DNA of 64,000 nucleotides from a virus (lineage: Duplodnaviria > Heunggongvirae > Uroviricota > Caudoviricetes): positions 6,308-70,307 of IMG/VR virus record IMGVR_UViG_3300027763_000047; one strand, written 5' to 3'. Positions 10,463 to 40,844 of this stretch are shown here, piece by piece (position 1 is the stretch's first letter; every line of letters begins with the position of its first letter). The position numbers and the translations under genes are program-made. The notes under the pieces were generated by a model that was not told where the DNA came from, searched no databases, and was given only the letters and a program-made list of their open reading frames with translations.

Positions 10463-13400
10463 TTAATAAAGTTTTGTATAACCATAATTAACTACCACAG
10501 AGTTGCCGCTGGTGTTGTTAATGCTAAAGTCAAATCTATTAGTAGTACTACTTGGAGCAACATTGCTTCTAACTATGGCGTTGGCTGTGCCTATAAATTG
10601 ATTGGGTATGCTGACAAAATCCAACGGTGTACCGCCACCGTTGTAAACCCAAGCATATTGTGTACCCACCACTGGAACATTGGTATTAGTAATGGTAGCT
10701 AGGGCATTCCACGCAATGATGCCGTTGGGTATATTGCCAGTGACCCACATATTATATGTGCCGCTACTTACAGTAAAGCTGTAAGTGTTGGTGCCAGCGG
10801 TTACTGACCAAGAGCCGGTTGTTTGTTGGGCCACATTGGTCAAGCCTGATCCATTACCAACAAAGGTATTAGCAGTAACATTGCCGGCAGCACTGATATT
10901 TGCACCAGAGATGTTGCCAGAAGAGGGTTCAACGGTAGCATAGTTATTATACTTTATATTACCATCATAGAGCATTATACTCATATAACCATTGGAGGTA
11001 ATATCTTGTGTGACTGCTGGAGCTGGTAAACTAGTTAATTGACTACCATTACCTAAAATATAATTGCCAGTAATATTACCGTAGGCACTTAGTGATCCGC
11101 CTGACATACTTGATGGTATCGTAATATCGCCACCACTTACTGTTAATCCTTGTACTCCGGTAATGTTGGCACTGACAACTGTTAGTTCTGACCCAGATGT
11201 TATGTTGCCCGAAACGCTAATATTGCCTTGTTGTATATTAAGATTACTTAGTACATTGCCACTTAAACTTAAATTACCACCATTGATATTTTGTCCATTT
11301 ACATTGGCACCTATTATATTGCCTTCCGCGCTAATGCTACCACCCATGCCGGTATTGGAAGACATTGTAAGATTTCCACCTTCCATTGTAAGGCCATTAA
11401 CACTATAAATGTTAGCGCCATATGCAAAGATGTTGCCACTCAAACTAATATTGCCTGCGGATATATTAGCAGCATTTACATTGCCGCTTATGTTGGCATT
11501 ACTAATAATATTACCTGATAAACTTAGGTTAGCGGCATTAATATCGCCTGAGAAGTTAGCACCAAAAGCATTAAGATATCCGCCGAGGCCAGTAATTTGA
11601 TTAATATTAATATTACCAGCATTGGAAGTAATGCCTGTTACTGTGTCAATTAATAATCCAGAGGCTGTAATGTTACCTGAAGTTGATATTACGTTACTAC
11701 CAAAGTCGCCTAAGAAGTTAGCCACGTTAGCGTTGCCATAATCGCTACCACCAATTGATACCGGGGTACCATTAGCGTAGTTAACTGCAAAAGTATTAGC
11801 TGGTAGAGTCAAGTTGCCTGTGTTACCAAATAACCATTGGTTAATGTTTGGGCCAGCGTTAGTAAAAATACCAACAGAGAAGTCGCTAGTAATACCAAAG
11901 ACGCCTTCGCCTCCGCTTATTGAAGAGTTGTCAGGAAACCTTAAACCACCATTTACACCAAATGTCCATTGTGCTGAGTTACCTACATTGTCATTAGTAT
12001 TAATAACAACGTTACCTGTGTTGGCTAGCTTGACGTACAAGTCATCACTGCCGAAGAACAATTCTGTAGAGTAAAGATTACCCGAAGTCAAGTGCAGATG
12101 ATTGGCATCATTAGTGGTTGGATAAATTAATAACTGTTGATCAGCATTTGTTCCACCTGTTGGCTTTAAAGCAATGGCACTGCCGCTAAGTCCGCCGTCC
12201 GGAATGTTGGTTTCATAGACAACACTATTCAATGGCAAGGTCAAGTTACCAGTAGTGTCAAAGTTCCAAGTCTTTGTGCCACTGACATTACCAGCCTGTA
12301 TGGCCACATTGCCATCCTGTAAAACAGCAACATTGGCTTGTTCATCTGTGCCCAAAATCACATTACCAACGCCACCACCAGCTGCTACATGTATATCCGC
12401 GTTCCCAGTCAAGTAAATATTTAAATACTCATTGCTGGCACCGTTTGGTTGTAGGTTTAAGTTTCCTGTGCCAATGATGTTGACATCATCAAATGTAACA
12501 TTACCTGTATTACCACCTCCGCCACTGAATGTAACAGGATCACCATTGGCATAGTTTACAGCGAATGTATTGGCTGGTAATGTTAAGTTACCAAGGCTAT
12601 CAAATATCCAAGTATTACCAGTTGAAGTGTACCCGTTCCAAGACTGTATGGAAACATTGCCGATTGGAGAAACTCCAACCATCACATTGGCACCAGCATC
12701 TTCACCTAATATAAGACTTCCATCATTGTTGGTAACATGAAGGTCTGGTCCAGAGGTTAGGAAGATGTCCAAATATGAAGCAGCATTGGTAGGATCTGGT
12801 TGTAAGTGTAAGTTACCTGTACCAATGACATTAATATCATTGAATGTTACATTGCCTGTGTTACCACCGCCACCGCCGTATGGACTACCGTTAGCATAGT
12901 TAATACTTGAGTAATTATTTGGTAATGTTATGTTACCGTCAACGCCGAATGTCCAATCAGTCGGAGCAGTATTATTATTACCGGCATTGGCAGCAGTATT
13001 ATATTTGGTTATTACAAATGTTGCCCCACCATTACCAGCAGTCATAGTCAATACATCACCTTCGGAATAACCTGTGCCCGGATCAGTTACACCAACGTTA
13101 ACAACCTGACCACTTAAACCATAACCGTAACCTACTATCATACCTGTACCTGTGCCTCCGGAAATAGCAGAAGAACTTCCGCCACCACCGTAACCACTGC
13201 CACCAGTTAGTAATGTACAGATATTATATTGACCTGTTACTCGTAGTGTCAAGTCGTTTACATTCGGTGCAATGATAGTAGCACTGTTGGGTAGTGTTAA
13301 GTTACCATTTACACCAAAGGCCCATGTATTGGCATTGGCTGTGATATTAACGCTAGTATTACTAGTTTCACTTATTTGGCTACCTTGAGGCAATGTCAAT

Positions 13401-16400
13401 GCACCACTAGCATTAAAATCCCATAGATTAGGACCAGGGCTACCATTTTGTCCTACTGCTATTCTAACAATACCTGATCCTGGAGTAGGGTTAGCATATA
13501 CTGCCGCTATGTTGCTGATGCCAACGTTCGCATAATCTTCTATCCATATGGATACTGCCGCACCATTGGCTCCAGTTGACAATATGGACAGTGGATGATC
13601 CGTAGATGCAATAGAAGCAATATTACCAGCAGGGTCATCAGGTGTGATAACTAAATTACCTGTTGGGAATGTTAAGTTACCAGTAGTGTCAAAGTTCCAC
13701 TGTGCTGAGTTTCCGGTGGCATCATCACTGCCGATCACAACATTGCCGGCGGCTTCTAATTTTACATACTTGATATCGGAGCCAAAGTATTGATCAAAAT
13801 AAGCATTGTTGCCTGTGTCAAGGTGTATGTGTGTGGCAACATCGCCACCACGCACTCGAATATATTGTAAATTGCCCACGCTTTCGGTGCCTGGAGCCAG
13901 GTACAGGCCACTGCTGCCAACTTGATCTCCAGTGCCCACAACAGCTTGATCGTCGAATGTAACGTTGCCTGTGTTGCCGCCGCCACCAGCCGTGTCATAT
14001 GTGATCTCACCAGTAGATGCATCATAATACATGGCATTTGCTGTGTTGGCTTGTCGCACTGGTTTCACTGTGAATGTGTTGACAGTGGTTTGCTCCAGGA
14101 CTGATCCTGTGGCGTTCAATATGATTGAGTTGTTGGCTTGATTGGAGTTGCCGGCTCCGTAGCCAATGGCCACTGCGTATTGGCCCTGTGTGTCTCGCCC
14201 GGCTCCATCACCAACGGCCACGGCCGAGATGCCTTGTGTGTTGTAACCAGCATTTTCGCCAATGGCCACTGCTGAGTTGCCTTGTGTGGTTTGACCAGCT
14301 TCAAAACCAATAGCCACGCCATAGATGCCTTGTGTGGTTTGACCAGCAAGTCTTCCAAATGCTATTGCCGAGGTTCCTTGTGTGGTTGCGCCAGCCCCAA
14401 AACCAATTGCTATTGCCGAGCCACCTTGTGTGGTTTGTCCAGCTCCTTGGCCCACAGCCACCGACGATTCACCTTGTGTGGTTTTACCAGCACTATCACC
14501 GATTGCTACTGATTGGTCACCTTGACTGGTATTACCAGCTTGATAACCAATGGCCACTGATATATTACCTTGATTGACATTACCAGCCGAGTTGCCAATG
14601 GCTACTGCAACCAGGCCTTGATTGGTTAGTCCAGCACCCGAACCAAATGCCACTGCGTCACCCACAGTGTCTTGAATTGTTGCACCGTTTGTGAGTGTGA
14701 TCACGCCTGTGCTGATATTGCCTGCTGTGATATTGCCCGTGGTGCTGATTGGGTTTGATCCTAATGCAGCCAAGTTAGCAACAACATTGGCGTTGCCATA
14801 ACTTGCGGAAATACCAGTCAGTTGACTACCGTTGCCCAGAATATAACTACCAGTGATGTTGCCAACAGCACTGATGTTGCCAGGCACAGTCAAGTTACCA
14901 TCTGTGCCAAAGGTCCATGCATTACCGGCAGTTCTATCCGTGATACTATAATTGTTGCTACCATTGCCAAGAATACCAAAGTCCCATTGCTGAGTTGCGG
15001 TGGCCTGATCCTGCACTGACATATAAGCACTACGCGGAGTATTGTAGTTGTCATCGTAGCCAACCACAGTAATGCCAGGGCCAGCCACAATGCCAAAGTC
15101 TGTGCTTTCTACTCTTGGAGTATTGACCGTTATGTATGGAGTATAATCAACTCGGGGCTGGTAAGCCGTGTTACCGTTAATATCCAATAGACCATCGCCA
15201 TCGAACTGCATGGTGGTGTAGGTATCACCAGGCGTACCGCCTTGATTGGAAAAATCTCCCAACCAATTTATCTGCACCGCTCCAGAGTTGCCGCTAGGAT
15301 AACCACCGTAAGGATCGCCATTGGCATAGTTGATTGATATTTCGCTGTTACCTGGCAGTGTTAAGTTACCATCAGTGTCAAAAGCCCAGTTATAGGTGTT
15401 TGTTCCAATTGATATGTTACCACCGGATTCTAACTTGACATATTTGCTATCATCACCAAAGTATTGATCAAAATAACCATTATCGCCAGTGTCAAGATGT
15501 ATGTGTGTGGCAACATCACCACCACGCACTCTCAAGTATTGTAAATTGCCCGAGCTGTTAGCGCCAGGAGCCAAATACAAGCCACTGCCGCCGATTTCAT
15601 CGCCTGTGCCTACTACAATGTTATTATCAAATGTAACATTACCCGTATTACCGCTACCAGATGGCAGACCAGTTAATTGACTTCCATTGCCTAGGATGTA
15701 ACTTCCGGTAATATTACCAGTTGTTGAAATTACTACGTTACTGTTTGCCAAATATGTAGAAACATCAGCATTTGAGTAACTGGCTGGAAGATTAGTTAAT
15801 TGACTTCCATTACCAACGAAATAATTAGCAGTAATATTGCCGGTAGCAGATACCGTACCTACTGTAAGAACTTCTGTTCCGGAATTATACTTGAATAAAT
15901 TAGAAGTAGTAATATAACCGGTAGAATTAGCAAACGCTACAGCATTAGCATAATAATTAGGAGAGTACAGATTATTTAAAGTAACATCGCCGGCGTTGAT
16001 TGATCCTGTCGTACTAATTGTGTTGGAACCAAAGTTTGCTAAGAAACCAGCAGTATTTGCATTTCCATAATTAGAAGCAATACCAGTTAGCTGACTGCCA
16101 TTGCCAAAGAAATAACTAGCGGTGATATTGCCAGTAGTTGATATATTTGATGTTAATGCTTGTAAGTAAGATGAAACATTGCCATTAGCATATACTTGGC
16201 CTTGTAATGTAGTTATATTACTTGAATTGTTTGAAACATTAGATTGAATACTAATTATAGTATTGTCAGTTGGCAAGTATACGGCTACATTACTGTTACC
16301 ATAACTAGTAGTAACTACAATATTTGATATCAGACCGCCATCACCAATAAAATAGCCACTTGTTGTAATATTACCTACAATAGATAAATTGGCGGTTGAT

Positions 16401-17437
16401 GCTAATTGATATGCCATTCCGGCTACAACAGCTGAGTTGGCATTGTCCGCTTGAACAGCATAAGTTGCTGCGTTAGCTGTTTGTGCTATAGTGGCTGTGT
16501 TAGCAAATGATGCTAAGTTGGCATTGATTGCGAATAAAGCAGTATCAGCATTGATCGCCTGAGTAGCCAATGCTGCTAGATTAGCTACATATGCTGTGTT
16601 AGCAACAAGAGCAAACGGCACATTACCTACAATAGCATTGGCTGTAATGTTAGTGATATTGCTGCCATTGCCATACAGATAATTAGCAGTAACTCTATTA
16701 CCAACAATAGCATTGGCATATACATTCCCGGTTGTTGATACATTACCAGTGATAGATAAGGCAGATATTTGTCCAAAACTAGTTAAGTTTGAATAATTTA
16801 TGCTATTGCTGAATGTATTTCCAAGTAAAGCATTGGCCTGTACATTGGCAATAACATTGGTTAAATTGGCACCATCACCGATGAAAGTAGGTGCTGTAAT
16901 AGCAATTGTGCTATTCCAGCTGTTAGCTGAGTAATTATATGTAAAGTTAGCTCCTGCTATAGGAATTAACAGTCCGCCGCCATTAGCCTGTGCTGCATTG
17001 GCAGCACCGGTTGCTAGTGTAACATTTGAATTAGCAACAGATAAATTAGAATAGTTAACAGTAATAACATTGCCTGTTACCTGCAGGTTACCAGCTACAT
17101 AGACATTACCGGAGAACGTACCGGTGGCAGCGTTTATATATTGAGCGTAAACTGTACTGAAACGATTGGTACCCAACCCAATTGACCGGACATTGGGCAC
17201 ATCTGGTACAAAGTTGGCTGCTGGCACAACAACACCAATGCCATTTGTGGCTAATTGTAAATTGCCATTGTTATTGGTAACCTGTATGGTATTGTTGGCA
17301 ATTGTGATATTGCTGCCCACCGGGCCCGCTGCAAAAAGCTGTGTAAAATTGTAATTGGTGTCGGTAAAAGCTGTACGAAGTGGCGCACCTGTGCCATCGT
17401 TAGCGATATTGCCGGTATTGATAATTATTTGTCCCAT
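10463..17437 (-). CDS. giant tail fiber protein (2324 aa)
   Basis: N-term MGQIIINTGNIANDGTGAPLRTAFTDTNYNFTQLF fiber motif; about 13 S-A-V-A-I-G-x-x-A-G-x-T-T-Q-G repeats; multiple W-x-F-x-x-x-G-N-L-T-L-P and GNGSQLTG modules. Confidence 0.85.
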   Translation of the reverse strand: MGQIIINTGNIANDGTGAPLRTAFTDTNYNFTQLFAAGPVGSNITIANNTIQVTNNNGNLQLATNGIGVVVPAANFVPDVPNVRSIGLGTNRFSTVYAQYINAATGTFSGNVYVAGNLQVTGNVITVNYSNLSVANSNVTLATGAANAAQANGGGLLIPIAGANFTYNYSANSWNSTIAITAPTFIGDGANLTNVIANVQANALLGNTFSNSINYSNLTSFGQISALSITGNVSTTGNVYANAIVGNRVTANYLYGNGSNITNITANAIVGNVPFALVANTAYVANLAALATQAINADTALFAINANLASFANTATIAQTANAATYAVQADNANSAVVAGMAYQLASTANLSIVGNITTSGYFIGDGGLISNIVVTTSYGNSNVAVYLPTDNTIISIQSNVSNNSSNITTLQGQVYANGNVSSYLQALTSNISTTGNITASYFFGNGSQLTGIASNYGNANTAGFLANFGSNTISTTGSINAGDVTLNNLYSPNYYANAVAFANSTGYITTSNLFKYNSGTEVLTVGTVSATGNITANYFVGNGSQLTNLPASYSNADVSTYLANSNVVISTTGNITGSYILGNGSQLTGLPSGSGNTGNVTFDNNIVVGTGDEIGGSGLYLAPGANSSGNLQYLRVRGGDVATHIHLDTGDNGYFDQYFGDDSKYVKLESGGNISIGTNTYNWAFDTDGNLTLPGNSEISINYANGDPYGGYPSGNSGAVQINWLGDFSNQGGTPGDTYTTMQFDGDGLLDINGNTAYQPRVDYTPYITVNTPRVESTDFGIVAGPGITVVGYDDNYNTPRSAYMSVQDQATATQQWDFGILGNGSNNYSITDRTAGNAWTFGTDGNLTVPGNISAVGNITGSYILGNGSQLTGISASYGNANVVANLAALGSNPISTTGNITAGNISTGVITLTNGATIQDTVGDAVAFGSGAGLTNQGLVAVAIGNSAGNVNQGNISVAIGYQAGNTSQGDQSVAIGDSAGKTTQGESSVAVGQGAGQTTQGGSAIAIGFGAGATTQGTSAIAFGRLAGQTTQGIYGVAIGFEAGQTTQGNSAVAIGENAGYNTQGISAVAVGDGAGRDTQGQYAVAIGYGAGNSNQANNSIILNATGSVLEQTTVNTFTVKPVRQANTANAMYYDASTGEITYDTAGGGGNTGNVTFDDQAVVGTGDQVGSSGLYLAPGTESVGNLQYIRVRGGDVATHIHLDTGNNAYFDQYFGSDIKYVKLEAAGNVVIGSDDATGNSAQWNFDTTGNLTFPTGNLVITPDDPAGNIASIASTDHPLSILSTGANGAAVSIWIEDYANVGISNIAAVYANPTPGSGIVRIAVGQNGSPGPNLWDFNASGALTLPQGSQISETSNTSVNITANANTWAFGVNGNLTLPNSATIIAPNVNDLTLRVTGQYNICTLLTGGSGYGGGGSSSAISGGTGTGMIVGYGYGLSGQVVNVGVTDPGTGYSEGDVLTMTAGNGGATFVITKYNTAANAGNNNTAPTDWTFGVDGNITLPNNYSSINYANGSPYGGGGGNTGNVTFNDINVIGTGNLHLQPDPTNAASYLDIFLTSGPDLHVTNNDGSLILGEDAGANVMVGVSPIGNVSIQSWNGYTSTGNTWIFDSLGNLTLPANTFAVNYANGDPVTFSGGGGNTGNVTFDDVNIIGTGNLNLQPNGASNEYLNIYLTGNADIHVAAGGGVGNVILGTDEQANVAVLQDGNVAIQAGNVSGTKTWNFDTTGNLTLPLNSVVYETNIPDGGLSGSAIALKPTGGTNADQQLLIYPTTNDANHLHLTSGNLYSTELFFGSDDLYVKLANTGNVVINTNDNVGNSAQWTFGVNGGLRFPDNSSISGGEGVFGITSDFSVGIFTNAGPNINQWLFGNTGNLTLPANTFAVNYANGTPVSIGGSDYGNANVANFLGDFGSNVISTSGNITASGLLIDTVTGITSNAGNININQITGLGGYLNAFGANFSGDINAANLSLSGNIISNANISGNVNAANISAGNISLSGNIFAYGANIYSVNGLTMEGGNLTMSSNTGMGGSISAEGNIIGANVNGQNINGGNLSLSGNVLSNLNIQQGNISVSGNITSGSELTVVSANITGVQGLTVSGGDITIPSSMSGGSLSAYGNITGNYILGNGSQLTSLPAPAVTQDITSNGYMSIMLYDGNIKYNNYATVEPSSGNISGANISAAGNVTANTFVGNGSGLTNVAQQTTGSWSVTAGTNTYSFTVSSGTYNMWVTGNIPNGIIAWNALATITNTNVPVVGTQYAWVYNGGGTPLDFVSIPNQFIGTANAIVRSNVAPSSTTNRFDFSINNTSGNSVVVNYGYTKLY

Positions 17438-25373: not shown

Positions 25374-25570
25374 AATCAAAATACATTGAGCAGTATAAGG
25401 CGGACTGGGGGCCAGAGTTCGCTGAACTGGCTGGAGTTGAATATCGTCCCGAACATGACGAGATAGCAGCCATGGGTTGTTATACTCTAATGAATTATAT
25501 TGCCTATAACTTTCTCAACGGTGAGTGTAGAGCGGAAATCTTAAAAATGTGTGGAGTTGAAGAATGTTAA
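25370..25570 (+). CDS. small hypothetical protein
   Basis: ATGA coupling. Confidence 0.45.
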   Translation: MKSKYIEQYKADWGPEFAELAGVEYRPEHDEIAAMGCYTLMNYIAYNFLNGECRAEILKMCGVEEC

Positions 25571-27406: not shown

Positions 27407-27574
27407 ATGAGTTTTATGCAAGAAGCAGTTCGTGAGTGGGCGTGGATTGTGGGTCAAGATCGAGAAGATCAACAATGGATTCTTTCCGATTATGATACTT
27501 GGGAACGTAATCCACATTACCGTGGCCCGGATCTGGGTCATCCTGAAGATTGCTATTACGGAGATGAAGAATGA
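27407..27574 (+). CDS. small hypothetical protein (55 aa), not in ORF track
   Basis: GGAG RBS 7 nt upstream; stop overlaps next ATG. Confidence 0.5.
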   Translation: MSFMQEAVREWAWIVGQDREDQQWILSDYDTWERNPHYRGPDLGHPEDCYYGDEE

Positions 27575-28598: not shown

Positions 28599-28825
28599 AC
28601 GAACAGAAGATTAAAGAATTGGTGCTAGCCGCAGGTGCTGAGTATCATTTTGGAGGGGATATTTTGGTAAACAATGTGCATATATTTGCTGAAAAGTTGA
28701 TTGAGTTGACTGTTAAGGAATGTATTTCTGTCTTAGAAGAAGAAGTTGTGGGGTCGATTGACCGGCATGGCGATAACGTCTACCTGGACCTTATATTAAA
28801 CAAACATTTTGGAGTTGACAAATGA
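28595..28825 (+). CDS. small protein of the HFGVEE paralog family
   Basis: FAEKLIELTVKECI ... LNKHFGVDK; ATGA coupled. Confidence 0.5.
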   Translation: MNEQKIKELVLAAGAEYHFGGDILVNNVHIFAEKLIELTVKECISVLEEEVVGSIDRHGDNVYLDLILNKHFGVDK

Positions 28826-29371: not shown

Positions 29372-29503
29372 GTACCGCTATAACTACCATTATATGCGTA
29401 GTTATAGCAGTTAAGTACAAGGTTATTCAAAAGATTTGTTAGTTAAATAATCTTGCTATATAATATGTTACTCAATGTAGTTCAATTTAAAAAAGGAAAA
29501 GTA

Positions 29504-30673
29504 ATGAAATTTACTCAAAAAATGCTGGCAGCAGCTTTACTGGCACTAGGTCTTGGATCTAGCGCAGCTCACGCCGCAGACTCGTCTGTGACACTATACG
29601 GTATCTTAGATGCCGGTCTCCAAGGCTCTTCACAAAGTTTGTCCAACGGTTACTCATCAAGTAATGTTGGATTGGCCTCTGGTGTGCAGTCAGGCAATCG
29701 CTTTGGTATCAAAGGTTCGGAAGATTTAGGTTCAGGTCTTCGTGCTACTTTTGCTCTTGAAGCAGGCTTCAACTTAGGTAGTGGTGTTAGTCAGCAAAAT
29801 GGCACCTTGTTTGGTCGTCAATCATGGGTTGGTGTTGAAAGCAGCTCGTTAGGTTACGCTCGTGTAGGTAAGCAATATAACTTTGCAACAGACTATGTTG
29901 GCGCAATTGATCCATTCCTCTTGGGATTTGGTCAGGCTAATATGGGTACCACATTCGGTGCTGCTAATACTACCCGTTATAACAACATGGTTAAGTATCA
30001 GACACCAACATGGAATGGCTTAACAGCTGGTGTTGGTTATTCGTTTGCTAACGGCTTGGCTAGTTTGTATGCTGATCCAGCTAACTACGGTGGATATGTT
30101 GCTGCTAACACATACAACTATGCCACAGCTAACAACGCTCGTACATTAACAGCTGGTATTAAGTATGCGTCTGGTCCCGTGACTGTTGTTGGTTCATATG
30201 ATGTTATGTATGGTCCTGAAAACATTGTTGGTTCAAATGCTGCTAATCCATCACAGTGGATTGTGGGCGGTGCGTATGACTTCTCAGTTGCTAAAATTGC
30301 TGCTGCGTACAGTCAGTCACGTAACGGTTGGATCAATGGACAAGCTAGTGTAGACCCAACATTCACAGCCAACACTTATAACAGTGGTGCCGGTGCCGTG
30401 TTGTATAGTCCTTCGTTTGGTGCTAACAGCTATCTAGTAGGTGCTACTGTTCCTGTAACAGGCGCACAGAAAGTATTTGCCAGCTATCAATATGCTACTC
30501 CGGTCGCATCAATGGCTGCTGCTGCTAATCTGAGCATTTATTCAGTTGGTTATCAATATGACTTGTCAAAGCGTACCAATGCGTATGCCTATGCTAGTCA
30601 GGCTCAAAACTATGCGTTCTTAGACGGTGCCAAGAGCACAGTTTATGGACTTGGTTTACGGCATCAGTTCTAG
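29504..30673 (+). CDS. Gram-negative outer-membrane porin (betaproteobacterial porin_4-like)
   Basis: signal peptide ending AHA-AD; VTLYGILDAG; C-terminal ...GLRHQF; start at ATG 29504 after AAGGAAAAG. Confidence 0.75.
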   Translation: MKFTQKMLAAALLALGLGSSAAHAADSSVTLYGILDAGLQGSSQSLSNGYSSSNVGLASGVQSGNRFGIKGSEDLGSGLRATFALEAGFNLGSGVSQQNGTLFGRQSWVGVESSSLGYARVGKQYNFATDYVGAIDPFLLGFGQANMGTTFGAANTTRYNNMVKYQTPTWNGLTAGVGYSFANGLASLYADPANYGGYVAANTYNYATANNARTLTAGIKYASGPVTVVGSYDVMYGPENIVGSNAANPSQWIVGGAYDFSVAKIAAAYSQSRNGWINGQASVDPTFTANTYNSGAGAVLYSPSFGANSYLVGATVPVTGAQKVFASYQYATPVASMAAAANLSIYSVGYQYDLSKRTNAYAYASQAQNYAFLDGAKSTVYGLGLRHQF

Positions 30674-30688
30674 AAGTAAAAGGATAAC

Positions 30689-31228
30689 ATGAACAAGTTT
30701 TTATCAATCGTTATCCTAGCACTGGCTTCCGCTTCAGCGGTTGCTGGTGGCTATGTAACAGCAACCGACGGCAGCATCGTTAAGACTGGTAGTGATTTGT
30801 GTTTACACACAGGTTATTACACAGCTACTGATGCAGTTAAAGGTTGTGACGCAGTTCCAGTTACCCCAGCTAAGCCAGCATCAATCACGCTTGACTCAGA
30901 TGTATTGTTTAAGTTTGATTCGGCAACGCTAACCGCAGACGGTGTGAAAGCACTGGACGTGGTTGCAGCCAAAGCCGGTGGCGTTGTAATCATCGTAGGA
31001 CACACTGATCGTATTGGATCTAGTCGATACAATCAATCTTTAAGTGTTGCTCGTGCTGACACCGTTGCAAAATATGTAGGTGCAAAGGCAAAAGCAGATT
31101 ACTCAGTAACTGGAGTTGGATCCACACAACCAAGTGGCAAAACAAAACAATGTATTGGCCCTATGAGCCCGCAACTTATTGCTTGTTTAGCACCTGATCG
31201 TCGTGTAGTTATTACTATCGTTAAGTAA
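30689..31228 (+). CDS. OmpA-family C-terminal domain protein (signal peptide)
   Basis: VIIVGHTDRIGSSRYNQSLSVARADTV OmpA-like motif. Confidence 0.75.
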   Translation: MNKFLSIVILALASASAVAGGYVTATDGSIVKTGSDLCLHTGYYTATDAVKGCDAVPVTPAKPASITLDSDVLFKFDSATLTADGVKALDVVAAKAGGVVIIVGHTDRIGSSRYNQSLSVARADTVAKYVGAKAKADYSVTGVGSTQPSGKTKQCIGPMSPQLIACLAPDRRVVITIVK

Positions 31229-31636: not shown

Positions 31637-32434
31637 ATGAAACAAATTTTTAAATTGGCAGTTGTAGCAGGTCTTATCGCAACCACAGTTGGTTGTCAGC
31701 GTATTGAAACCGGCGAAGTAGGTGTACGAGTTGGCTTTGATAAACAAGTAAAACCAGGCGAGTTGCAACCAGGTTCTTTTAATCAAACACTAATTGGTGA
31801 TGTACTTACATTCCCTGTTCGTGATGTATCAGTTAAGATTGATGACATGACTCCGCTTGCCAAAGACAACAGCACTATGAAAGACATGGATGTTACTGTT
31901 ATCTATAACATCAATCCAACGCAAGTTAGCGAATTGTATGTTAGCAAGAACCGTAGCTTTCACGTTAAGCACAATGGTGACACTTACTTGATGTACAACT
32001 ACATTTTCAATGCCGCACGAAATGCTGCTTACAAAGCTGCTCGTAAGTATGACGCATTGACTATGAACGACAGTCGTGCGTTAATGGAACAGGATATGAA
32101 AGACATCATTGCCAAGACCTTGGCAGATGAAAATCTTGCTGGTTCAATTACAGTAAGCCAAGTTCTTATTCGTGCGCTAACTCCAGCAGACTCAGTGGTT
32201 GCGTCAGCCAATGAATTGGTACGTTCTAAGAACGAGCTGTTGCAAAAGGAGGTTGAAGTCAAAACAGCCGAAGCAGAATCTCGTCGTATGGCAGCACTTA
32301 CCAATCAAAGCTCGGCCAGTATTGCTTACATGAATGCTCAGGCTGCGTTAAACATCTCCGAAGGTGTCAAGAACGGTAAGGTGCAGACCATTATTGTTCC
32401 CAGCAACATGACCGGCTTGATGATTGGCAAGTAA
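31637..32434 (+). CDS. SPFH/band-7 domain lipoprotein
   Basis: lipobox LIATTVGC; ETGEVGVRVGF...DVTVIYNINP SPFH-like core. Confidence 0.55.
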   Translation: MKQIFKLAVVAGLIATTVGCQRIETGEVGVRVGFDKQVKPGELQPGSFNQTLIGDVLTFPVRDVSVKIDDMTPLAKDNSTMKDMDVTVIYNINPTQVSELYVSKNRSFHVKHNGDTYLMYNYIFNAARNAAYKAARKYDALTMNDSRALMEQDMKDIIAKTLADENLAGSITVSQVLIRALTPADSVVASANELVRSKNELLQKEVEVKTAEAESRRMAALTNQSSASIAYMNAQAALNISEGVKNGKVQTIIVPSNMTGLMIGK

Positions 32435-32684
32435 TATGAACGAACGATTTCAGCAACTATTGAAACAGAGTACCAATCCTCCCTGGGATGGTGAGCAGGG
32501 CCCAATGAACGAATTTAATTTGGAACGGTTCGCTGAGTCGATTGTAAGAGAATGTGCCAAGTATATCAATGAACGCACTCAAGACTGGGATGCCGATTTG
32601 CGGTGGATCTTCAATGACGGTTCTGGTGATATGGCAGTCAATGTTGACGAATTATTAAATAGACATTTCGGAGTTGAAGAATGA
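32424..32684 (+). CDS. small protein of the HFGVEE family
   Basis: FAESIVRECAKYI ... LNRHFGVEE. Confidence 0.55.
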   Translation: MASNMNERFQQLLKQSTNPPWDGEQGPMNEFNLERFAESIVRECAKYINERTQDWDADLRWIFNDGSGDMAVNVDELLNRHFGVEE

Positions 32685-32878
32685 ACGAACGAATTAGAGA
32701 GCTTGCTGATGATGCTGGATTTATGGATTCTTGGTTTTCCGAATCCGGTGATGATTGTGAACGAGAACTTAAAAAGTTCGCCGAGTTGATTGTCGAAGAA
32801 TGTATTAATATTTGTATTTCCAATAGAAACGATGACTCTGCCCAGTACATCGAAAAACATTTCGGAGTTGAAGAATGA
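32681..32878 (+). CDS. small protein of the HFGVEE family
   Basis: FAELIVEECINICI ... IEKHFGVEE. Confidence 0.55.
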   Translation: MNERIRELADDAGFMDSWFSESGDDCERELKKFAELIVEECINICISNRNDDSAQYIEKHFGVEE

Positions 32879-33138
32879 ACTTAGAACTGGTAGCCAAGCT
32901 ATACGAGCAATCATATAAGACAGTACCACATAACCCCACCAGCGGCTTTGATGCTAAATTGGAGGATCGTGTGTTTGTACCAGAGTTGTTCGCCGAGTTA
33001 CTGGTCATGGAATGCTATGAAAGTTGCAGAAGTCAGGTACTTGATAAAGAAACTGCTGACACAAACGAACTAACATATAATGATGCTGTTGGTGATTGTG
33101 CAATTGGGTTATTACAACATTTTGGGATGATGGAATGA
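32875..33138 (+). CDS. small protein of the HFGVEE family
   Basis: FAELLVMECYESC ... LLQHFGMME. Confidence 0.5.
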   Translation: MNLELVAKLYEQSYKTVPHNPTSGFDAKLEDRVFVPELFAELLVMECYESCRSQVLDKETADTNELTYNDAVGDCAIGLLQHFGMME

Positions 33139-33281
33139 AGAAAACATTGGCTGTGCTACTTACAATTACTTTCCCAATTTGGTGTATCCCTGCTGTGCTG
33201 GGGTCACTAGCTTACTTGGCAGTGGCTACACTATATAAAGAAATGTTGGCATTTTTAGAATGGCTTGGAGTTAAAGAATGA
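33135..33281 (+). CDS. small membrane peptide
   Basis: ATGA-coupled; ends LEWLGVKE using the same junction cassette. Confidence 0.4.
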   Translation: MKKTLAVLLTITFPIWCIPAVLGSLAYLAVATLYKEMLAFLEWLGVKE

Positions 33282-33733
33282 CAAATCGTAGAGGATTTTT
33301 ACAATCAGTATCGGCAGCATTGGGGTCAACCCTGTTGTCTGGTAGTACAGTTGCATCAGTATTGACAGCCGCACCTGTAGCATCAGGAGTAGCCACAGTG
33401 GCCGCAGTTGCGGCAGTGGCCAGACAGTTTAAGTCGAGTGGTGTTGTTCTTGATGCTGCCACGCTTGAACCAATATCTCGGGTGGTGATATTTAATGGAG
33501 ACGAGTCAGTAATTAAAGAAGACGTGAAGTATTCTGAGATATTTGACGATCCGGCAAGACTAGCAGAAATTGAAGAATTGGATAAATTATATCCTAATTC
33601 CAATGTGCATAGTAAATGGACCTTGGCGGCGACACGTTTGGTACTGGAAAAGAAAGGCATGCCACCACTTACTGCCGAGGAAGAAATTATGATTATTGAA
33701 GGTCGAAAGCCCGTGGTTGGAGTCGAGGGATGA
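33278..33733 (+). CDS. Tat-signal (twin-arginine) secreted protein
   Basis: MTNRRGFLQSVSAALGSTLLSG... Confidence 0.5.
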   Translation: MTNRRGFLQSVSAALGSTLLSGSTVASVLTAAPVASGVATVAAVAAVARQFKSSGVVLDAATLEPISRVVIFNGDESVIKEDVKYSEIFDDPARLAEIEELDKLYPNSNVHSKWTLAATRLVLEKKGMPPLTAEEEIMIIEGRKPVVGVEG

Positions 33734-34302
33734 CGTGGCCATTGGCTTCTCCATTGAAAGAAAATACCAACTGGATCGTTAGGGATAACGTCTTTAGTAA
33801 TATTGAGCTTGATCAAATAATTAAATTAGGCAACAGTATTACCTCCAGTACCGGTACGATAGGTTCTGAAATAACTAACGAATATCGTAAATCCAGTATA
33901 GCCTGGCTGGATACTGAAGATCCAGAATTCGATTGGATATATGCCACGCTTGCACCAGTGATTACTGAAATCAATGATGCATATTATCGATTTGATCTGA
34001 AGTCCCTCCAGACTTTACAGTTTACCCGGTATACCACCGCTGGCGTATATAAACCGCATACCGATCTGGGTAGGCAAAAGCCCACTAGAAAGTTGAGTTT
34101 TACTGTACAATTATCTGATACGACAAATTACGAAGGTGGAGATTTGCGTTTTTTAAATTTAAAGACAACCCCCGAGTCAGCCCCCAGGGCTCGAGGAAAA
34201 ATTATTTTCTTCCCCAGCTGGATGACTCACGAGATAACTCCCGTGACCCAGGGTACACGATATAGTCTAGTTGGGTGGGTAGAAGGACCGTTATTCAGAT
34301 GA
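33730..34302 (+). CDS. 2OG-Fe(II) oxygenase (prolyl-4-hydroxylase-like)
   Basis: YKPHTDL (HxD), WMTHEI (His), RYSLVGW (Arg). Confidence 0.7.
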   Translation: MTWPLASPLKENTNWIVRDNVFSNIELDQIIKLGNSITSSTGTIGSEITNEYRKSSIAWLDTEDPEFDWIYATLAPVITEINDAYYRFDLKSLQTLQFTRYTTAGVYKPHTDLGRQKPTRKLSFTVQLSDTTNYEGGDLRFLNLKTTPESAPRARGKIIFFPSWMTHEITPVTQGTRYSLVGWVEGPLFR

Positions 34303-34417
34303 CGTCGGTAACGGCATCTGTATCGTTTTTGGCTAACCAGGTCAAGATGAATACTAAATTCAGATGAAATCTGCATGATGTGGATCAGTACGCTGTATCG
34401 GTATAAATACTATTATC

Positions 34418-36358
34418 ATGAAAATACACGAAATTACCTTGTTATTCGAGGGTTATCCCCAAGCTCAAGATGCTTTTATTCAGCAATCGGGCGGTGATAC
34501 TGCATCAGTACAAAAAACTATCGCCGACTTTCGTCAGTTGGTGAATAGAAATCAGATCAAAGACACAAACCAAAAGAATATCGATTGGTGGGCCAAACAG
34601 GGCTGGGATAAGTTCAATGCTTTTGTCAATCAGGCATCAGCAATACCCAGCAAGACGCAAATGACCAGAAAGAAAATACCTGGGCAAAGCATCAACTTGG
34701 TGGATGATGCTCAGTGGCTCATCGTTGTGCCACTGGACAAGGAAGCCAGCTGTTTTCATGGAAGAAACAGCAGTTGGTGTACTACTAAAGTTCATCAGGA
34801 ACATTTTGAAAATTACTTCTACAACAATGAAGTAACCTTGATATATTGCTTTAATAAAGCCACTGGTGGTATGTGGGCTATAGCGGCACATAAAAGAACA
34901 GATCGCATGGAAATGTTTACACAACAAGATGCATCAATATCGGCAGAACAATTTACACAACTGACTGGTCTAGATCCTCAACAGTTACGATCCATGGCTC
35001 TGGGTGACGTTCATCAACCTGCAGTACAGGCATCCAGAGATCAATGGAAGGAATCTGTAGCATTGACAAAACAATTGATGGCTACAATGCCACGCGGCAC
35101 CAGATCGGCAGAAATAGAAAAGCAATTGGAGTATAATAAAGTAGGGGGATTATGCTTTGATTATATCTACCGATTTCAGTCAATTGAATCCAAAGACTTT
35201 CCGTTGTCGATACAGATATCGGCAATTAACAAAAATGGTGCCGTATTGGACCGAATCAATAATCCTGTTCAAGCTGTGCAACTGGCAGCAGTCAAGAAGG
35301 AAAATCTTGGGTTGAAAACCATCATTGCTCATGGAGCCAAGCCCAATGAAGCCGTACAACTGGCAGCAGTCACACAACACGGTCCTGCTATAGGTTTCCT
35401 GAAAGCCGCCGGCATCACTCCCAGCGAGGCTGTTCAAATGGCAGCAGTAAATCAGAGCGGTACTGCTATACATTCCATCATATCGAATGGTATCGTGCCC
35501 AGTGATGAGGTGCAAATAGCAGCAGTAACTCAGAATCCAGAAGCAATAAAATTCATAATCACAGATTTGGGCACTGAGCCAAGTCATGCTGTGCAAATGG
35601 CAGCAGTCAAACGTTACGGCGGAACGTTTCGAATGTTGATGAATCATGGAATTGTTCCCAGCAAAGACGTTCAAGAAGAAGCAATAGCCAGGGACGGCCT
35701 TAGTATACAATATTTGAAAAATCCCAATGAGAGATTACAATTGGCCGCAGTTAGCAATGTTGGCAGGGCTATATTGTTTATTCTCCGGGCCGGCATCAGA
35801 CCAAGTCACGCGGTGCAATTGGCAGCAGTGACGCAGGATGGGCTGGCACTCGATTATATCTTACAGGATAAAATTAAACCAGAGTATGATGTGCTATTAG
35901 CAGCAGTGACCCAGGATGGCCGTGCCATTGAATATATCCAAAATCCCGACGAGCGATTACAGATAGCCGCAGCCAAGAGAAATAGTGGTGCATTAAAACT
36001 TTTAATGAAAGCTGGAATAACCCCCAGTTATGCCGTACAGATGGCGTCAGTTACTCATGATCCCTGGTCTATAAAATATTTGAAAAATCCCGATGAGAGA
36101 TTACAATTGGCCGCAGTCAACAATCATGGTGGTGCATTACATGAAATAATCAAATCTGGAATTCTTCCCAGCGAGGCGGTACAATTGGCCGCGGTCAAAT
36201 CAAGCCCCATAGTATTACGTATGATCCAAAATCCCAGCATGGCGGTTCGCGACGCTGCACACATAGCAGCACAAGAGAAAAAAGCTCAAGAGGATGCTGC
36301 TATAAACGCTGCCAGAGCTGCCAGAGCTGCTCAAGGTGCCCAAGCAGCACCGGCCTAA
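34418..36358 (+). CDS. repeat protein with about 14 tandem ~37-aa repeats (DUF4116-like)
   Basis: repeats P-S-x-A-V-Q-[LM]-A-A-V-x-Q-x-G-x-A-[IL]-x-[YF]-[IL]; TATAAATA 10 nt upstream. Confidence 0.55.
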   Translation: MKIHEITLLFEGYPQAQDAFIQQSGGDTASVQKTIADFRQLVNRNQIKDTNQKNIDWWAKQGWDKFNAFVNQASAIPSKTQMTRKKIPGQSINLVDDAQWLIVVPLDKEASCFHGRNSSWCTTKVHQEHFENYFYNNEVTLIYCFNKATGGMWAIAAHKRTDRMEMFTQQDASISAEQFTQLTGLDPQQLRSMALGDVHQPAVQASRDQWKESVALTKQLMATMPRGTRSAEIEKQLEYNKVGGLCFDYIYRFQSIESKDFPLSIQISAINKNGAVLDRINNPVQAVQLAAVKKENLGLKTIIAHGAKPNEAVQLAAVTQHGPAIGFLKAAGITPSEAVQMAAVNQSGTAIHSIISNGIVPSDEVQIAAVTQNPEAIKFIITDLGTEPSHAVQMAAVKRYGGTFRMLMNHGIVPSKDVQEEAIARDGLSIQYLKNPNERLQLAAVSNVGRAILFILRAGIRPSHAVQLAAVTQDGLALDYILQDKIKPEYDVLLAAVTQDGRAIEYIQNPDERLQIAAAKRNSGALKLLMKAGITPSYAVQMASVTHDPWSIKYLKNPDERLQLAAVNNHGGALHEIIKSGILPSEAVQLAAVKSSPIVLRMIQNPSMAVRDAAHIAAQEKKAQEDAAINAARAARAAQGAQAAPA

Positions 36359-36441
36359 AAGGCAGCATAATTTAAATGAGGACCTTGGCGCTCTATGTAT
36401 CAGTTTTGGCTAACTAGGTCAAGAAAAATAATAAATTATGG

Positions 36442-36470
36442 TTGACATTTAATCAAAGGTCAGCTATAAT
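36442..36470 (+). promoter_or_regulatory. perfect consensus sigma70 promoter
   Basis: ttgacatttaatcaaaggtcagctataat. Confidence 0.7.
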
Positions 36471-36542
36471 GTAGTTGTAGTATGTAGTTAAGTTTAACTT
36501 TTATTTTAATCAACTTTGAAAGGCATCTTAGAAAGGCATCTT

Positions 36543-37851: not shown

Positions 37852-38264
37852 CCCCCTCACTGACCTCTGTAATTAACGGCGGGTATGTTACCACCAGTAC
37901 CACTGGTCCGGTGTACTACACTGGTGGTGGCATTGTCGGCGGCGGCGGCTATGCCGGTGGTGCTGGATTTGGCGGTGGTAATACTGCTATAGGCATTGGG
38001 TCATGGTCCAGTCAGCCAGCACCAGCCACAATCACTGCCGGCACACTAGAGCTATCGGGCGATAAAGCTGATATTAAAATCAATGGTGTCAGTCTAAATG
38101 ACACTTTAACAGCTATACAAAAAAAATTAGATGTATTAACCGTCAATCCTAAATTAGAAAATGAATGGGACAAGCTCAAGGAATTGGGTGAACAATATCG
38201 CAAGCTGGAAGCCGAACTTGCAGAAAAATCTCGTATGTGGGCAGCTTTAAAAAAGACTGAGTGA
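37776..38264 (+). CDS. glycine-rich protein with C-terminal coiled coil
   Basis: GGGIVGGGGYAGGAGFGGG; start uncertain (overlaps previous ORF). Confidence 0.4.
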   Translation: MDRYGKWIMAANKATNDPNNTTATVAPSLTSVINGGYVTTSTTGPVYYTGGGIVGGGGYAGGAGFGGGNTAIGIGSWSSQPAPATITAGTLELSGDKADIKINGVSLNDTLTAIQKKLDVLTVNPKLENEWDKLKELGEQYRKLEAELAEKSRMWAALKKTE

Positions 38265-38830
38265 TGAAAATTAAATATTTTTCATTACTGGTCTTGTTGG
38301 GATTGGGCGGGTGTTTAACTACACCCGTTCTAGACTCTACACTAACATCGGTTGACTATGAATTAATGGATGCATTGATCTATGAAAGAACACCAACTCC
38401 ATTGGTTAAAACTCCACTATTTTCTCCCAAGGACATTGAATGTCTGGCCCGGAATATATATTACGAATCAGGAGCAGAGCCACTTGAAGGCAAAGTTGCT
38501 GTGGCTGTGGTAACCATCAATCGCTCGAAAGATGAGAGATTTGGTTCAAAAACGCTATGCGGCATTATATACACAAGAACAAATATAGGCAAGGGTGTGA
38601 TAGTTTGCCAGTTTAGCTGGACCTGTGGTACTAAAATTCCAATTAAAAAAGATAGTGAGCATTGGCGGTTATCCAAGGAAGTTGCTGAGAACATAGCTCG
38701 TGGCGATTACAGTGAGTACTCGTACAAATATCGAAAAGCCCTATTCTTTCACGCTGTATCAGTCAAGCCATCATGGGCTTATGTCAAGCGTGTAGTAGCC
38801 CGTATCGGCGGCCATGTATTTTATGAATAG
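38261..38830 (+). CDS. SleB-like cell-wall hydrolase (Hydrolase_2), lipoprotein
   Basis: lipobox LLGLGGC; ECLARNIYYESGAEPLEGKVAVAVVTINR...QFSW. Confidence 0.65.
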   Translation: MMKIKYFSLLVLLGLGGCLTTPVLDSTLTSVDYELMDALIYERTPTPLVKTPLFSPKDIECLARNIYYESGAEPLEGKVAVAVVTINRSKDERFGSKTLCGIIYTRTNIGKGVIVCQFSWTCGTKIPIKKDSEHWRLSKEVAENIARGDYSEYSYKYRKALFFHAVSVKPSWAYVKRVVARIGGHVFYE

Positions 38831-39739: not shown

Positions 39740-39961
39740 TTGAGTAAATCAGATGATGTAATTAAAATGGAGGGTGTAATCACCGAAGTATTACGAAACA
39801 CGAATTATCGTGTTAAAATTGAAAACATTGAAAATCACATTCTCGCTACACTAAGCGGGAGAATACGCCAAAATAATATCAAAGTACTTACAGGCGACAG
39901 AGTACAGTTAGATATATCACCCTACGACCTATCTCGTGGTAGAATTACACGTAGGCTATGA
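39740..39961 (+). CDS. infA: translation initiation factor IF-1 homolog
   Basis: EGVITEVLRNTNYRVKIEN...LSGRIRQNNIKVLTGDRVQLDISPYDLSRGRI aligns with bacterial IF-1; TTG start. Confidence 0.85.
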   Translation: MSKSDDVIKMEGVITEVLRNTNYRVKIENIENHILATLSGRIRQNNIKVLTGDRVQLDISPYDLSRGRITRRL

Positions 39962-40521
39962 TTTTAATAAATACCTACATGAGAGATTTATTAAACTTAG
40001 TGGAAGCAGCAACCGTTTCAGCTAAACTGGAAACTACCCCACTACCCTACGCACATAAAGATCTGGCTCCCATAATGAGCGCAGACACAATAGAATACCA
40101 CTACGAGCACCTGGCTAAAGGCTACGCTAAAAAGTACAATGCCGGCGAAGGTGATGCCGATTTCAACCGTGCTGGCAGCTTCTTACACAACAAATTCTTT
40201 CCCCAATTGCAAGCACCAAAAGGTGCCAACCGTCCCAAGGGTGCGGTGCTAGAACTCATTGAAGCTAACTTCAAAACTTACGAAGATTTCAAGGTAGCGT
40301 TCAAAGAAGCTGCCATGAAGATTCAGGGATCGGGTTGGGTTTATCTCAGCACAGGTGGAACTATTAAAACCATACGAAATCATCAGGTTCGTACCGATAT
40401 TTGTGTACTGGTTGACTGGTGGGAACATTCATGGTCGACGGATTACAAGTGGGATAAAGAAAAGTATCTAGATAATATCTGGAAAATTATCAACTGGAAC
40501 GTATGTTCGGAGAGAATATGA
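39958..40521 (+). CDS. divergent Fe/Mn superoxide dismutase-like protein
   Basis: [37 protein letters not shown] resemble SOD N- and C-domain signatures. Confidence 0.65.
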
Positions 40522-40844
40522 TCACACTAACTGAAAACGCCGCGATTAAAATTAAAGATTTATTAGCAGAAGAAAACAATCCCAAGCTAAAACTTCGTGT
40601 ATTCGTTCAGGGCGGCGGATGCAGTGGAATGCAGACAGGCTTTACCATGGATGAAGAACAAGCTGACGATGACTGGGAGGTCGAAGTCAATGGCGTTCAT
40701 TTGTTAGTAGATAGTATGAGTAGTAATTATTTAAAAGGTTCAACCGTGGATTATCGCGATGATATCAATGGATCTGCCTTTGTTATCACTGGCATGGAAG
40801 CCACAACGACATGTGGCTGTGGTAGTAGTTTTTCACCATATTAA
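40518..40844 (+). CDS. Fe-S cluster insertion protein, ErpA/IscA/HesB family
   Basis: [14 protein letters not shown]...CGCGSSF conserved cysteines. Confidence 0.8.

Follow-up and report, generated by a model that had tools for sequence, protein, structure and literature searches.

An orphan phage protein with a twin-arginine-like N-terminus and the 2OG-Fe(II) oxygenase gene that overlaps it

ORF A and ORF B

Two overlapping genes of a virus contig, IMG/VR record IMGVR_UViG_3300027763_000047, are the subject of this analysis. They are open reading frame A (ORF A; 33278-33733, 151 amino acid residues, aa) and ORF B (33730-34302, 190 aa), both on the plus strand. All coordinates refer to the window, which is the whole analysed stretch of 64,000 nucleotides (nt) and corresponds to positions 6,308 to 70,307 of the record. 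A preliminary description of the locus had regarded ORF A as a protein with a twin-arginine translocation (Tat) signal and ORF B as a prolyl-hydroxylase-like 2-oxoglutarate (2OG)-Fe(II) oxygenase with intact metal ligands; it had suggested that they are a secreted substrate and its modifying enzyme, a combination said to be unusual in a phage. The twin-arginine N-terminus starting at 33278, with a long uncharged stretch after it, was confirmed by translation, and the overlap of the two genes was found as described: the TGA stop of ORF A (33731-33733) and the ATG of ORF B (33730-33732) share the ATGA at 33730-33733. As for the relation between the two genes, we favour, with slightly better than even confidence, another explanation. 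They would be independent neighbours brought together by mosaic shuffling, ORF A being directed to the envelope via a Tat-type signal and ORF B being a mobile cytoplasmic auxiliary enzyme.

ORF translation and homologue search characterise ORF A as a small orphan protein that combines a Tat-like N-terminus with a folded C-terminal domain. Its N-terminal sequence is MTNRRGFLQSVSAALGSTLLSGSTVASVLTAAPVASGVATVAAVAAVARQFK, with M-T-N-R-R-G-F-L-Q at the start. The homologues of ORF A form 112 clusters, all of them 141-160 aa in length and all of metagenomic or phage origin. A profile search against 1.84 billion cluster representatives returned the same small family only; the 1494-aa tandem-repeat protein P0237, which also appeared in the profile search, was dropped as spurious after inspection of its sequence. 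ORF A has no Pfam and no PHROG match, a tblastn search against 50,697 phage records revealed no match, and the single profile match in the PDB, to the hinge of L7/L12, is insignificant (E 0.08). A scan of metagenomes for ORF A with alignment A1 gave 0 loci, its patterns being swamped by generic signal-like peptides, and a rescan using the mature domain gave four. ORF A represents an orphan family without a known fold.

The folded domain comprises residues 49-151 (33422-33730) and is predicted to have three beta strands and then four helices (beta3-alpha4). In the AlphaFold2 (AF2) model, residues 49-147 are folded confidently (predicted local distance difference test score, pLDDT, about 85), and residues 1-48 are unstructured (pLDDT < 50). 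Within the mature part, conservation is highest in the invariant motif G127-x-P129-P130-L131-T132-x-E134-E135 (33656-33682). Ahead of the domain lies an Ala/Val/Pro-rich stretch, APVASGVATVAAVAAVA (residues 32-48, 33371-33421), described from hydropathy, homologue comparison and the AF2 model. In the window copy, the hydropathy over 19 residues peaks here at 1.84 (residues 28-47), which is borderline for a membrane helix. A conserved membrane helix was considered for this stretch and rejected in view of its charged or polar replacements in variants, which are AVTAAETWFRPRKFR in L007, L008 and P0070 (labels with L denote loci) and PPYSPQVAATAAAITATGVATVRE in P0235. Since family members carry charged or polar sequence at this place, the stretch is better read as a flexible linker, which it most likely is.

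The assignment of ORF B to the PF13640, prolyl-hydroxylase-like 2OG-Fe(II) oxygenases is based on Pfam, PHROG, alignment and predicted fold. Residues 96-184 match PF13640 (2OG-FeII_Oxy_3) with 61.6 bits (gathering threshold 27, E 1.4e-16), and the match to phrog_61 ('2OG-Fe(II) oxygenase') has a value of 2.6e-34. The iron ligands H110 (34057-59), D112 (34063-65) and H167 (34228-30) and the 2OG-binding residues R177 (34258-60) and S179 (34264-66) are invariant among 21 homologues of 51-76% identity (alignment A3). In addition, H167 and R177 align with their counterparts in PiuC. The predicted fold is a double-stranded beta-helix, and the structures closest to the model appear to be those of protein prolyl hydroxylases. 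The family match, the invariant residues and the predicted fold all bear out the earlier view of ORF B as a prolyl-hydroxylase-like enzyme with intact ligands.

No signal sequence was found at the N-terminus of ORF B, so the enzyme is presumed to be cytoplasmic. Its relatives occur in 361 phage records, mostly those of cyanophages and pelagiphages, and the freshwater subfamily to which it belongs, with at least 341 clusters (50-95% identity), comes from phage contigs of other kinds. Few auxiliary genes are as common in aquatic phages as those of PF13640 oxygenases (PMC9602691); the word 'unusual' would apply at most to the Tat-like signal of ORF A. The role of these oxygenase genes in phages has not been investigated so far (PMC9602691).

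The N-terminus of ORF A and the envelope gene block

The putative Tat-type signal peptide occupies residues 1-31 (33278-33370) and was recognised by conservation of RRxFL, by hydropathy and by comparison of nonsynonymous (pN) with synonymous (pS) change. Its layout would include the n-region MTN, the twin arginines in codons 4-5 (33287-33292), F7 and L8, and a weakly hydrophobic h-region. The segment T2-N3-R4-R5-G6-F7-L8-Q9 agrees with the Tat consensus (S/T)-R-R-x-F-L-K, with Gln in place of the usual Lys. R4, R5, F7 and L8 are invariant in the ORF A alignment, and about 109 of the 112 homologues retain RRxFL, the others being apparently truncated. After the arginines, 43 residues are uncharged and the next charge is R49; for a Tat h-region, at least 13 are expected. 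Residues 9-31 average 1.03 on the Kyte-Doolittle hydropathy scale, compared with 0.72-1.05 in six Tat signals of E. coli. Over 10 residues, the peak hydropathy of ORF A is 1.65 versus 2.45-3.02 in four Sec or lipoprotein signals of the same gene block, which have Lys where ORF A has Arg-Arg. When the 203 window ORFs of at least 60 aa were searched for RR-x-hydrophobic-hydrophobic within residues 1-35 with 13 or more uncharged residues after it, ORF A was the sole match.

In codons 1-48 of ORF A, pS is 0.39-0.51 and pN is 0.07-0.27. Because pN is well below pS, the N-terminus is conserved at the protein level and is under purifying selection. Weak matches of the N-terminus to hidden Markov models (HMMs) were to TAT_signal and to the leader of the L2 beta-lactamase, a Tat-exported enzyme. 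The -3/-1 rule suggests two candidate cleavage sites, VAS27 (before V) and LTA31 (before A). Both follow the position of the near-invariant P21-G22 of the homologues; residue 21 of the window copy is Ser.

Ahead of ORF A lie genes for envelope proteins. A porin of the Gram-negative type (Porin_4, 2.3e-41; probable start 29504) and an OmpA-like peptidoglycan-binding protein, both with Sec-type signals, are located at 29453-31228, and an SPFH/Band-7 lipoprotein with the lipobox TVGC is located at 31637-32434 (PF01145 3.8e-21, phrog_200). These three genes stand in a row on the plus strand, and the block is conserved in L010 and L015. Immediately before ORF A lies the gene for a small membrane protein (33096-33281, plus strand; 61 aa from the first start codon, probably shorter), whose stop overlaps the ORF A start and which is conserved in L015 and L103. 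Since the porin, the OmpA-like protein, the SPFH lipoprotein and small membrane proteins precede ORF A, the host would by implication be Gram-negative.

The most consistent upstream gene is that of the SPFH/Band-7 protein, which is found 0-2.7 kb ahead of the ORF A homologue in seven of nine distinct contexts. The SPFH proteins near ORF A are of three mutually divergent types, namely two lipoproteins of 265 and 261 aa with about 34% identity to each other and a membrane-anchored protein of 354 aa without significant similarity to either. In each type, the SPFH domain would come to lie in the periplasm. The association of ORF A with SPFH is stronger than that with the oxygenase and fits a periplasmic ORF A.

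Sharp mosaicism can also be noted in this part of the genomes. The SPFH protein of L009 (6010-6804) is 96% identical to that of the window (31637-32434), and the ORF A homologue located 1.2 kb past its gene (8001-8420) is 41% identical to the window ORF A (33278-33733). L010 is the converse case, with an ORF A identity of 96% and an SPFH protein of an unrelated type (354 aa). Between the SPFH gene and the small membrane protein gene of the window there are three tandem, coupled genes of small acidic paralogues, 32424-32684 (86 aa), 32681-32878 (65 aa) and 32875-33138 (87 aa), with ends of the form HFG(V/M)(E/M)E. Copies of this family are scattered near the ORF A homologues in L001, L009 and L013.

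Taken as a whole, the features of its N-terminus and neighbourhood make ORF A a probable exported protein, and the chances that the Tat route in particular is used are about even. Literature searches for phage-encoded Tat substrates, which were not exhaustive, gave nothing specific.

Several points weigh against this reading. On ORF A, TIGR01409 gives 7.4-10.3 bits, below its cutoff of 16.7, and with PF10518 (cutoff 22.7) the window copy has no hit and one homologue scores 11.5 bits. Conservation is higher in the 48 N-terminal residues than in the mature domain, a pattern not typical of a signal peptide. There is no AxA at the usual distance from the arginines, and the sole AxA, AVA48 (before R), would imply a signal of 48 residues. 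In L001/2 the 5 kb upstream of the ORF A homologue contain no SPFH gene, nor do the 3.7 kb upstream in L006, and the SPFH link may be plain conserved synteny. The host was read from gene content only; a search of genome contigs for the porin, made in order to infer the host, gave no match. As for the HMMs, a score below the cutoff is not decisive, since proven Tat substrates fail too: among the control signals of E. coli, six of nine pass TIGR01409 and two of four pass PF10518, and AmiA, AmiC, FdnG and SufI fail one or both models. The Tat signal of the preliminary description stands as far as the RRxFL motif and the moderate hydropathy of the h-region are concerned, but not in the two curated models.

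Alternatively, the N-terminus of ORF A could anchor the protein in the membrane permanently, as a type II signal-anchor or as a helical hairpin of residues 6-48. Bacterial SPFH genes are usually paired with a gene for the membrane partner NfeD, and such an anchored ORF A would be an inner-membrane organiser or regulator of SPFH and a functional analogue of NfeD. The strong conservation of the first 48 residues under purifying selection agrees with this, as do the 43 uncharged residues, the 19-residue hydropathy of up to 1.84, the basic residues at both flanks (RR; R49/K52) and the frequent SPFH gene upstream. However, a stable helix would need a more hydrophobic first segment than this one, with its mean of 1.03 and the near-invariant Pro21 and Gly22 of the family, and the second segment is charged or polar in several family members; a match to NfeD (PF01957) was not obtained, and the ORF A fold is not an OB-fold. 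We consider a permanent anchor unlikely.

A cytoplasmic ORF A, in which RR-G-F-L and the Ala/Val stretch would form an N-terminal interaction helix and an L7/L12-like hinge, is still harder to accept. The low scores with both Tat models, the L7/L12 hinge as the only PDB match and an L12-like gene nearby in L003 could be quoted in its favour, together with the AF2 model, which shows no helix in residues 1-48. But the E-value of the hinge match is insignificant and is driven by Ala/Val composition, an RRxFL right at the N-terminal end with 30 or more uncharged residues behind it, invariant across the family, is a hallmark of a targeting signal, and the neighbouring genes encode envelope proteins. 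This location appears improbable to us.

The junction between ORF A and ORF B and its conservation

Overlaps of 4 nt, such as the ATGA between ORF A and ORF B, are found at no fewer than 12 of the 81 same-strand junctions of the window, and five more junctions overlap by 1 nt. A 4-nt overlap of this kind also joins the start of ORF A to the gene before it. The junction leading into ORF A (33264-33280, plus strand) is a cassette, in which a GGAG Shine-Dalgarno sequence lies within the C-terminal codons of the upstream gene and is followed by the ATGA overlap. This cassette, TTYGGAGTTGAMRAATG(A), encodes the ...FGVEE end of the upstream protein, the GGAG ribosome-binding site and the ATGA stop/start. 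It is present in six copies in the window (25550-25566, 27557-27573, 28808-28824, 32667-32683, 32861-32877 and 33264-33280), compared with 0.09 expected. A degenerate version, GTTGGAGTCGAGGG, precedes the ATGA between ORF A and ORF B (33715-33732). Possibly, the cassette acts both as a translational coupler and as a short homology for the shuffling of small genes. Because 4-nt overlaps are routine in the window and the cassette recurs, the coupling of ORF A to ORF B is the default way in which this genome joins small genes and is no mark of a dedicated partnership.

The comparison of ORF A homologues covered about ten different genomic settings. The oxygenase follows ORF A only in L010-12 and L102 (ORF A identity 96%), L103 (95%), L104 (88%) and L015 (76%). 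In L013/14, where ORF A is 88% identical to that of the window, a 130-aa unknown gene and a methyltransferase are located downstream, with no adjacent oxygenase. In L003-5, L007, L008 and L105 (66-68%), ORF A is overlapped by the gene of a Ser-rich membrane protein of about 180 aa that bears no resemblance to the oxygenase, and in L001/2 and L009 (41-44%) other small genes follow. Two genes were checked as possible diverged oxygenases, the 186-aa one overlapping the ORF A homologue of L003 and the 170-aa one upstream in L001, and neither proved to be an oxygenase. The C-terminal tail of ORF A switches together with the downstream gene; the ...VVGVEG tail, which serves as a proxy for the pairing, occurs in 12 of the 112 clusters. 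Since the tail changes with the downstream gene, the recombination joint is located within the 3' terminal part of ORF A.

The surroundings of the oxygenase are no more uniform. Its homologues of 30-61% identity in 86 other phage loci are preceded by at least 15 kinds of gene, among them genes for proteins of 136 aa and, in marine phages, 148 aa, for a 600-aa enzyme and for a basic peptide of 53 aa that comes after a parvulin rotamase. A Tat-like N-terminus was found in none of the 79 ORFs upstream of the oxygenase homologues in these 86 loci. Twenty-two of the upstream junctions overlap by 1 or 4 nt. The adjacency of ORF A and ORF B appears to be a neighbourhood of a narrow clade that arose by gene shuffling, and no conserved substrate-enzyme pair. 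Against this it can be said that the comparison covers neighbouring genes, and an oxygenase elsewhere in those genomes is possible.

Another arrangement was noted in two freshwater phages, L016 (2827-3259) and L020 (3567-4001). There, genes for an 89-aa parvulin-type peptidyl-prolyl isomerase and a 53-54-aa Lys/Pro-rich peptide precede the oxygenase homologue, and the stop of the peptide gene overlaps the oxygenase start. A Porin_4 gene, like the rotamase gene, adjoins the oxygenase homologues in both loci. This 'proline-chemistry' neighbourhood is more suggestive than that of the window.

The secreted substrate with its modifying enzyme, as initially proposed, finds no support in these comparisons: the adjacency belongs to a narrow clade, the overlap is of an ordinary kind and genes with a Tat-like start do not precede the other oxygenases. 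In its fullest form, this proposal would have the already folded ORF A hydroxylated by ORF B while still in the cytoplasm, one candidate site being the invariant Pro-Pro of G(M/L)PPLTxEE, with Tat export afterwards and with coupling to ensure co-synthesis. The Tat pathway exports folded proteins, and a modification may therefore precede export. The ATGA coupling with a Shine-Dalgarno sequence upstream, the likeness of the ORF B fold to protein prolyl hydroxylases and the invariant PP motif of ORF A are all compatible with this, and the pairing has been kept over 76-96% ORF A identity even at loci with different genes beyond the pair (the DUF4116 gene is missing from L103). However, the PP is equally invariant in homologues without an adjacent oxygenase, an ORF A of 88% identity (L013/14) has another downstream gene, a Tat-like upstream gene is found at none of the 79 oxygenase-homologue loci, and the overlap is the default junction style. 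In addition, several oxygenase-bearing contigs of 93-262 kb are not among the four IMG/VR contigs found to have an ORF A relative. A substrate-enzyme relation is, in our opinion, highly improbable and, if it exists at all, is possible for the sub-clade of the window only.

The small and large subunits of hydrogenases are the model for hitchhiker export, and cofactor-containing enzymes are typical Tat cargo. Least probable of all, and barely credible here, is the export of an A-B heterodimer in which iron-loaded ORF B would cross on the Tat signal of ORF A and act on a periplasmic or envelope target: export of heterodimeric Tat substrates on one signal peptide is established (PMC10924467), translational coupling fits equimolar synthesis, and oxygenase homologues elsewhere adjoin a porin and a parvulin-type rotamase gene, but the A-B pair is not conserved, homologous oxygenases elsewhere have no signal-bearing partner, and the supply of 2OG and Fe(II) in the periplasm would be doubtful.

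The phage, the proposed mechanism and related systems

A megablast search of window positions 32000-36500 against the 50,697 phage records revealed no nucleotide match. PHROG matches of the window include a glycosyltransferase, a methyltransferase and a ClpA/B-like ATPase, and there are many orphan ORFs besides. The ATPase is full-length (55702-57981; phrog_4871, 2.9e-232); an ORF of 2,324 aa on the minus strand (10463-17437) has no PHROG match. The metagenomic contigs with relatives of ORF A reach 424 kb in length (the JGI contig of P0051); other long ones are the 342-kb scaffold_3 of LIAN20-1 and a 365-kb genome deposited as 'uncultured Caudovirales phage UFOVP190'. The gene content points to the window being part of a large uncultured phage, and our explanation takes it to belong to an uncultured freshwater jumbo-phage lineage.

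Downstream of ORF B, a 646-aa protein is encoded at 34418-36358. It has an N-terminal domain (phrog_17056) followed by many DUF4116-like repeats of about 33 residues (...GI.PS.AVQLAAV.Q.G.AI..I...); it accompanies the oxygenase in L010 and L015 and is missing in L103. A Hydrolase_2 protein (SleB-like cell-wall hydrolase; 38261-38830) has the lipoprotein-type N-terminus MMKIKYFSLLVLLGLGGC, and in several loci its gene follows the ORF A homologue at a distance of 2.7-4.5 kb. It is followed by a phage-encoded Fe/Mn superoxide dismutase (39958-40521; Sod_Fe_C, 3.8e-20) and then by a small protein (40503-40844).

According to the explanation that we favour, that of two independent neighbours, ORF A would be made in the cytoplasm and would fold there, its beta3-alpha4 domain comprising approximately 100 residues. 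The N-terminal 27-31 residues or so, with RR-G-F-L and a weak h-region, would serve as an export signal of the twin-arginine type, and the folded domain, tethered by the Ala/Val-rich linker, would be delivered to the periplasm of the Gram-negative host. There, ORF A might work together with the phage porin, the OmpA-like protein, the SPFH/Band-7 scaffold and the small membrane proteins, its likeliest partner being the periplasm-facing SPFH protein. ORF B would be a cytoplasmic Fe(II)/2-oxoglutarate enzyme resembling protein hydroxylases and mobile among aquatic phages, which was presumably inserted downstream of ORF A in one sub-clade through the standard junction of a Shine-Dalgarno sequence plus ATGA.

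A broader version, to which we give only a modest chance, would make ORF A the founder of a jumbo-phage family of Tat-exported periplasmic proteins that partner phage SPFH/Band-7 scaffolds. Such proteins would be non-homologous analogues of NfeD in an envelope-remodelling module, and in the sub-clade of the window their Pro-Pro would perhaps be hydroxylated by ORF B before export.

If ORF A is indeed exported by Tat, a lytic-type jumbo phage would be documented to use the host route for the export of folded proteins. The cargo would be a protein of unknown fold within a phage-made porin/OmpA-like/SPFH block, and this block hints that such phages rebuild the envelope of the host. A substrate located beside its hydroxylase is not backed by comparative genomics, so the neighbouring gene gives no basis for assigning a substrate to phage PF13640 oxygenases. 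What remains most interesting is the phage envelope block and the association of ORF A with SPFH.

When ORF A is compared with bacterial Tat signals (TIGR01409 / PF10518; E. coli CueO, SufI and NapA), the same S/T/N-R-R-x-F-L near the N-terminus can be noted. Its h-region is rich in Gly, Ser, Thr and Ala and equals the E. coli Tat signals in mean hydropathy; the domain after it is folded and cofactor-independent. Unlike these signals, ORF A stays below the cutoffs of both models, has Gln for Lys after F-L and has no AxA at the usual spacing; its uncharged stretch of 43 residues is unusually long, its h-region is unusually conserved, it is encoded by a phage, and its mature domain has no known relatives. 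A second comparison is with the SPFH-NfeD pairs of bacteria and archaea. ORF A has about 150 aa, a hydrophobic N-terminus and a soluble C-terminal domain, and mostly stands beside an SPFH/Band-7 gene. However, neither PF01957 nor any other Pfam family gives a hit at E <=0.1, the hydrophobic part of ORF A is signal-like instead of forming two or three membrane helices, and its beta3-alpha4 fold is not that of an OB domain. Since there is no PF01957 match and the fold differs, ORF A is not a homologue of NfeD.

ORF B resembles phage PF13640 oxygenases (phrog_61), being 33-39% identical to annotated genes of cyanophages and pelagiphages and sharing their single-domain layout of about 190 aa; unlike these, it belongs to the freshwater subfamily carried by other kinds of phage contig. 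Its identity to protein prolyl hydroxylases (Pseudomonas PPHD 4iw3, with EF-Tu as its substrate; HIF PHDs; viral collagen P4H of PBCV-1; OGFOD1) is only 12-21%, and the likeness to them is drawn from a model of medium confidence (pLDDT 75). The best matches of ORF B in the PDB (PiuC, 6e-6) and in NCBIfam (NF003974) are to PKHD-type proteins, YbiX/PiuC/CciO, the iron-uptake partners of TonB-dependent receptors, and its homologues bear the JGI label 'PKHD-type hydroxylase'. CciO, of the PKHD/PiuC type, is the cytoplasmic partner of an outer-membrane iron receptor (PMC12004947). A cytoplasmic location is presumed for ORF B as well, and the homologues of ORF B often stand beside the gene of an outer-membrane protein (the porin of L016 and L020). 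Unlike the YbiX/PiuC equivalogs (NF003972-5), ORF B scores 65.4 bits against a cutoff of 143, with only residues 91-185, the C-terminal half, aligned, and it has no gene of a TonB-dependent receptor nearby. In comparison with these systems, the adjoining PF13640 oxygenase is an already known kind of phage auxiliary gene, and the new element at this locus is the orphan signal-bearing protein.

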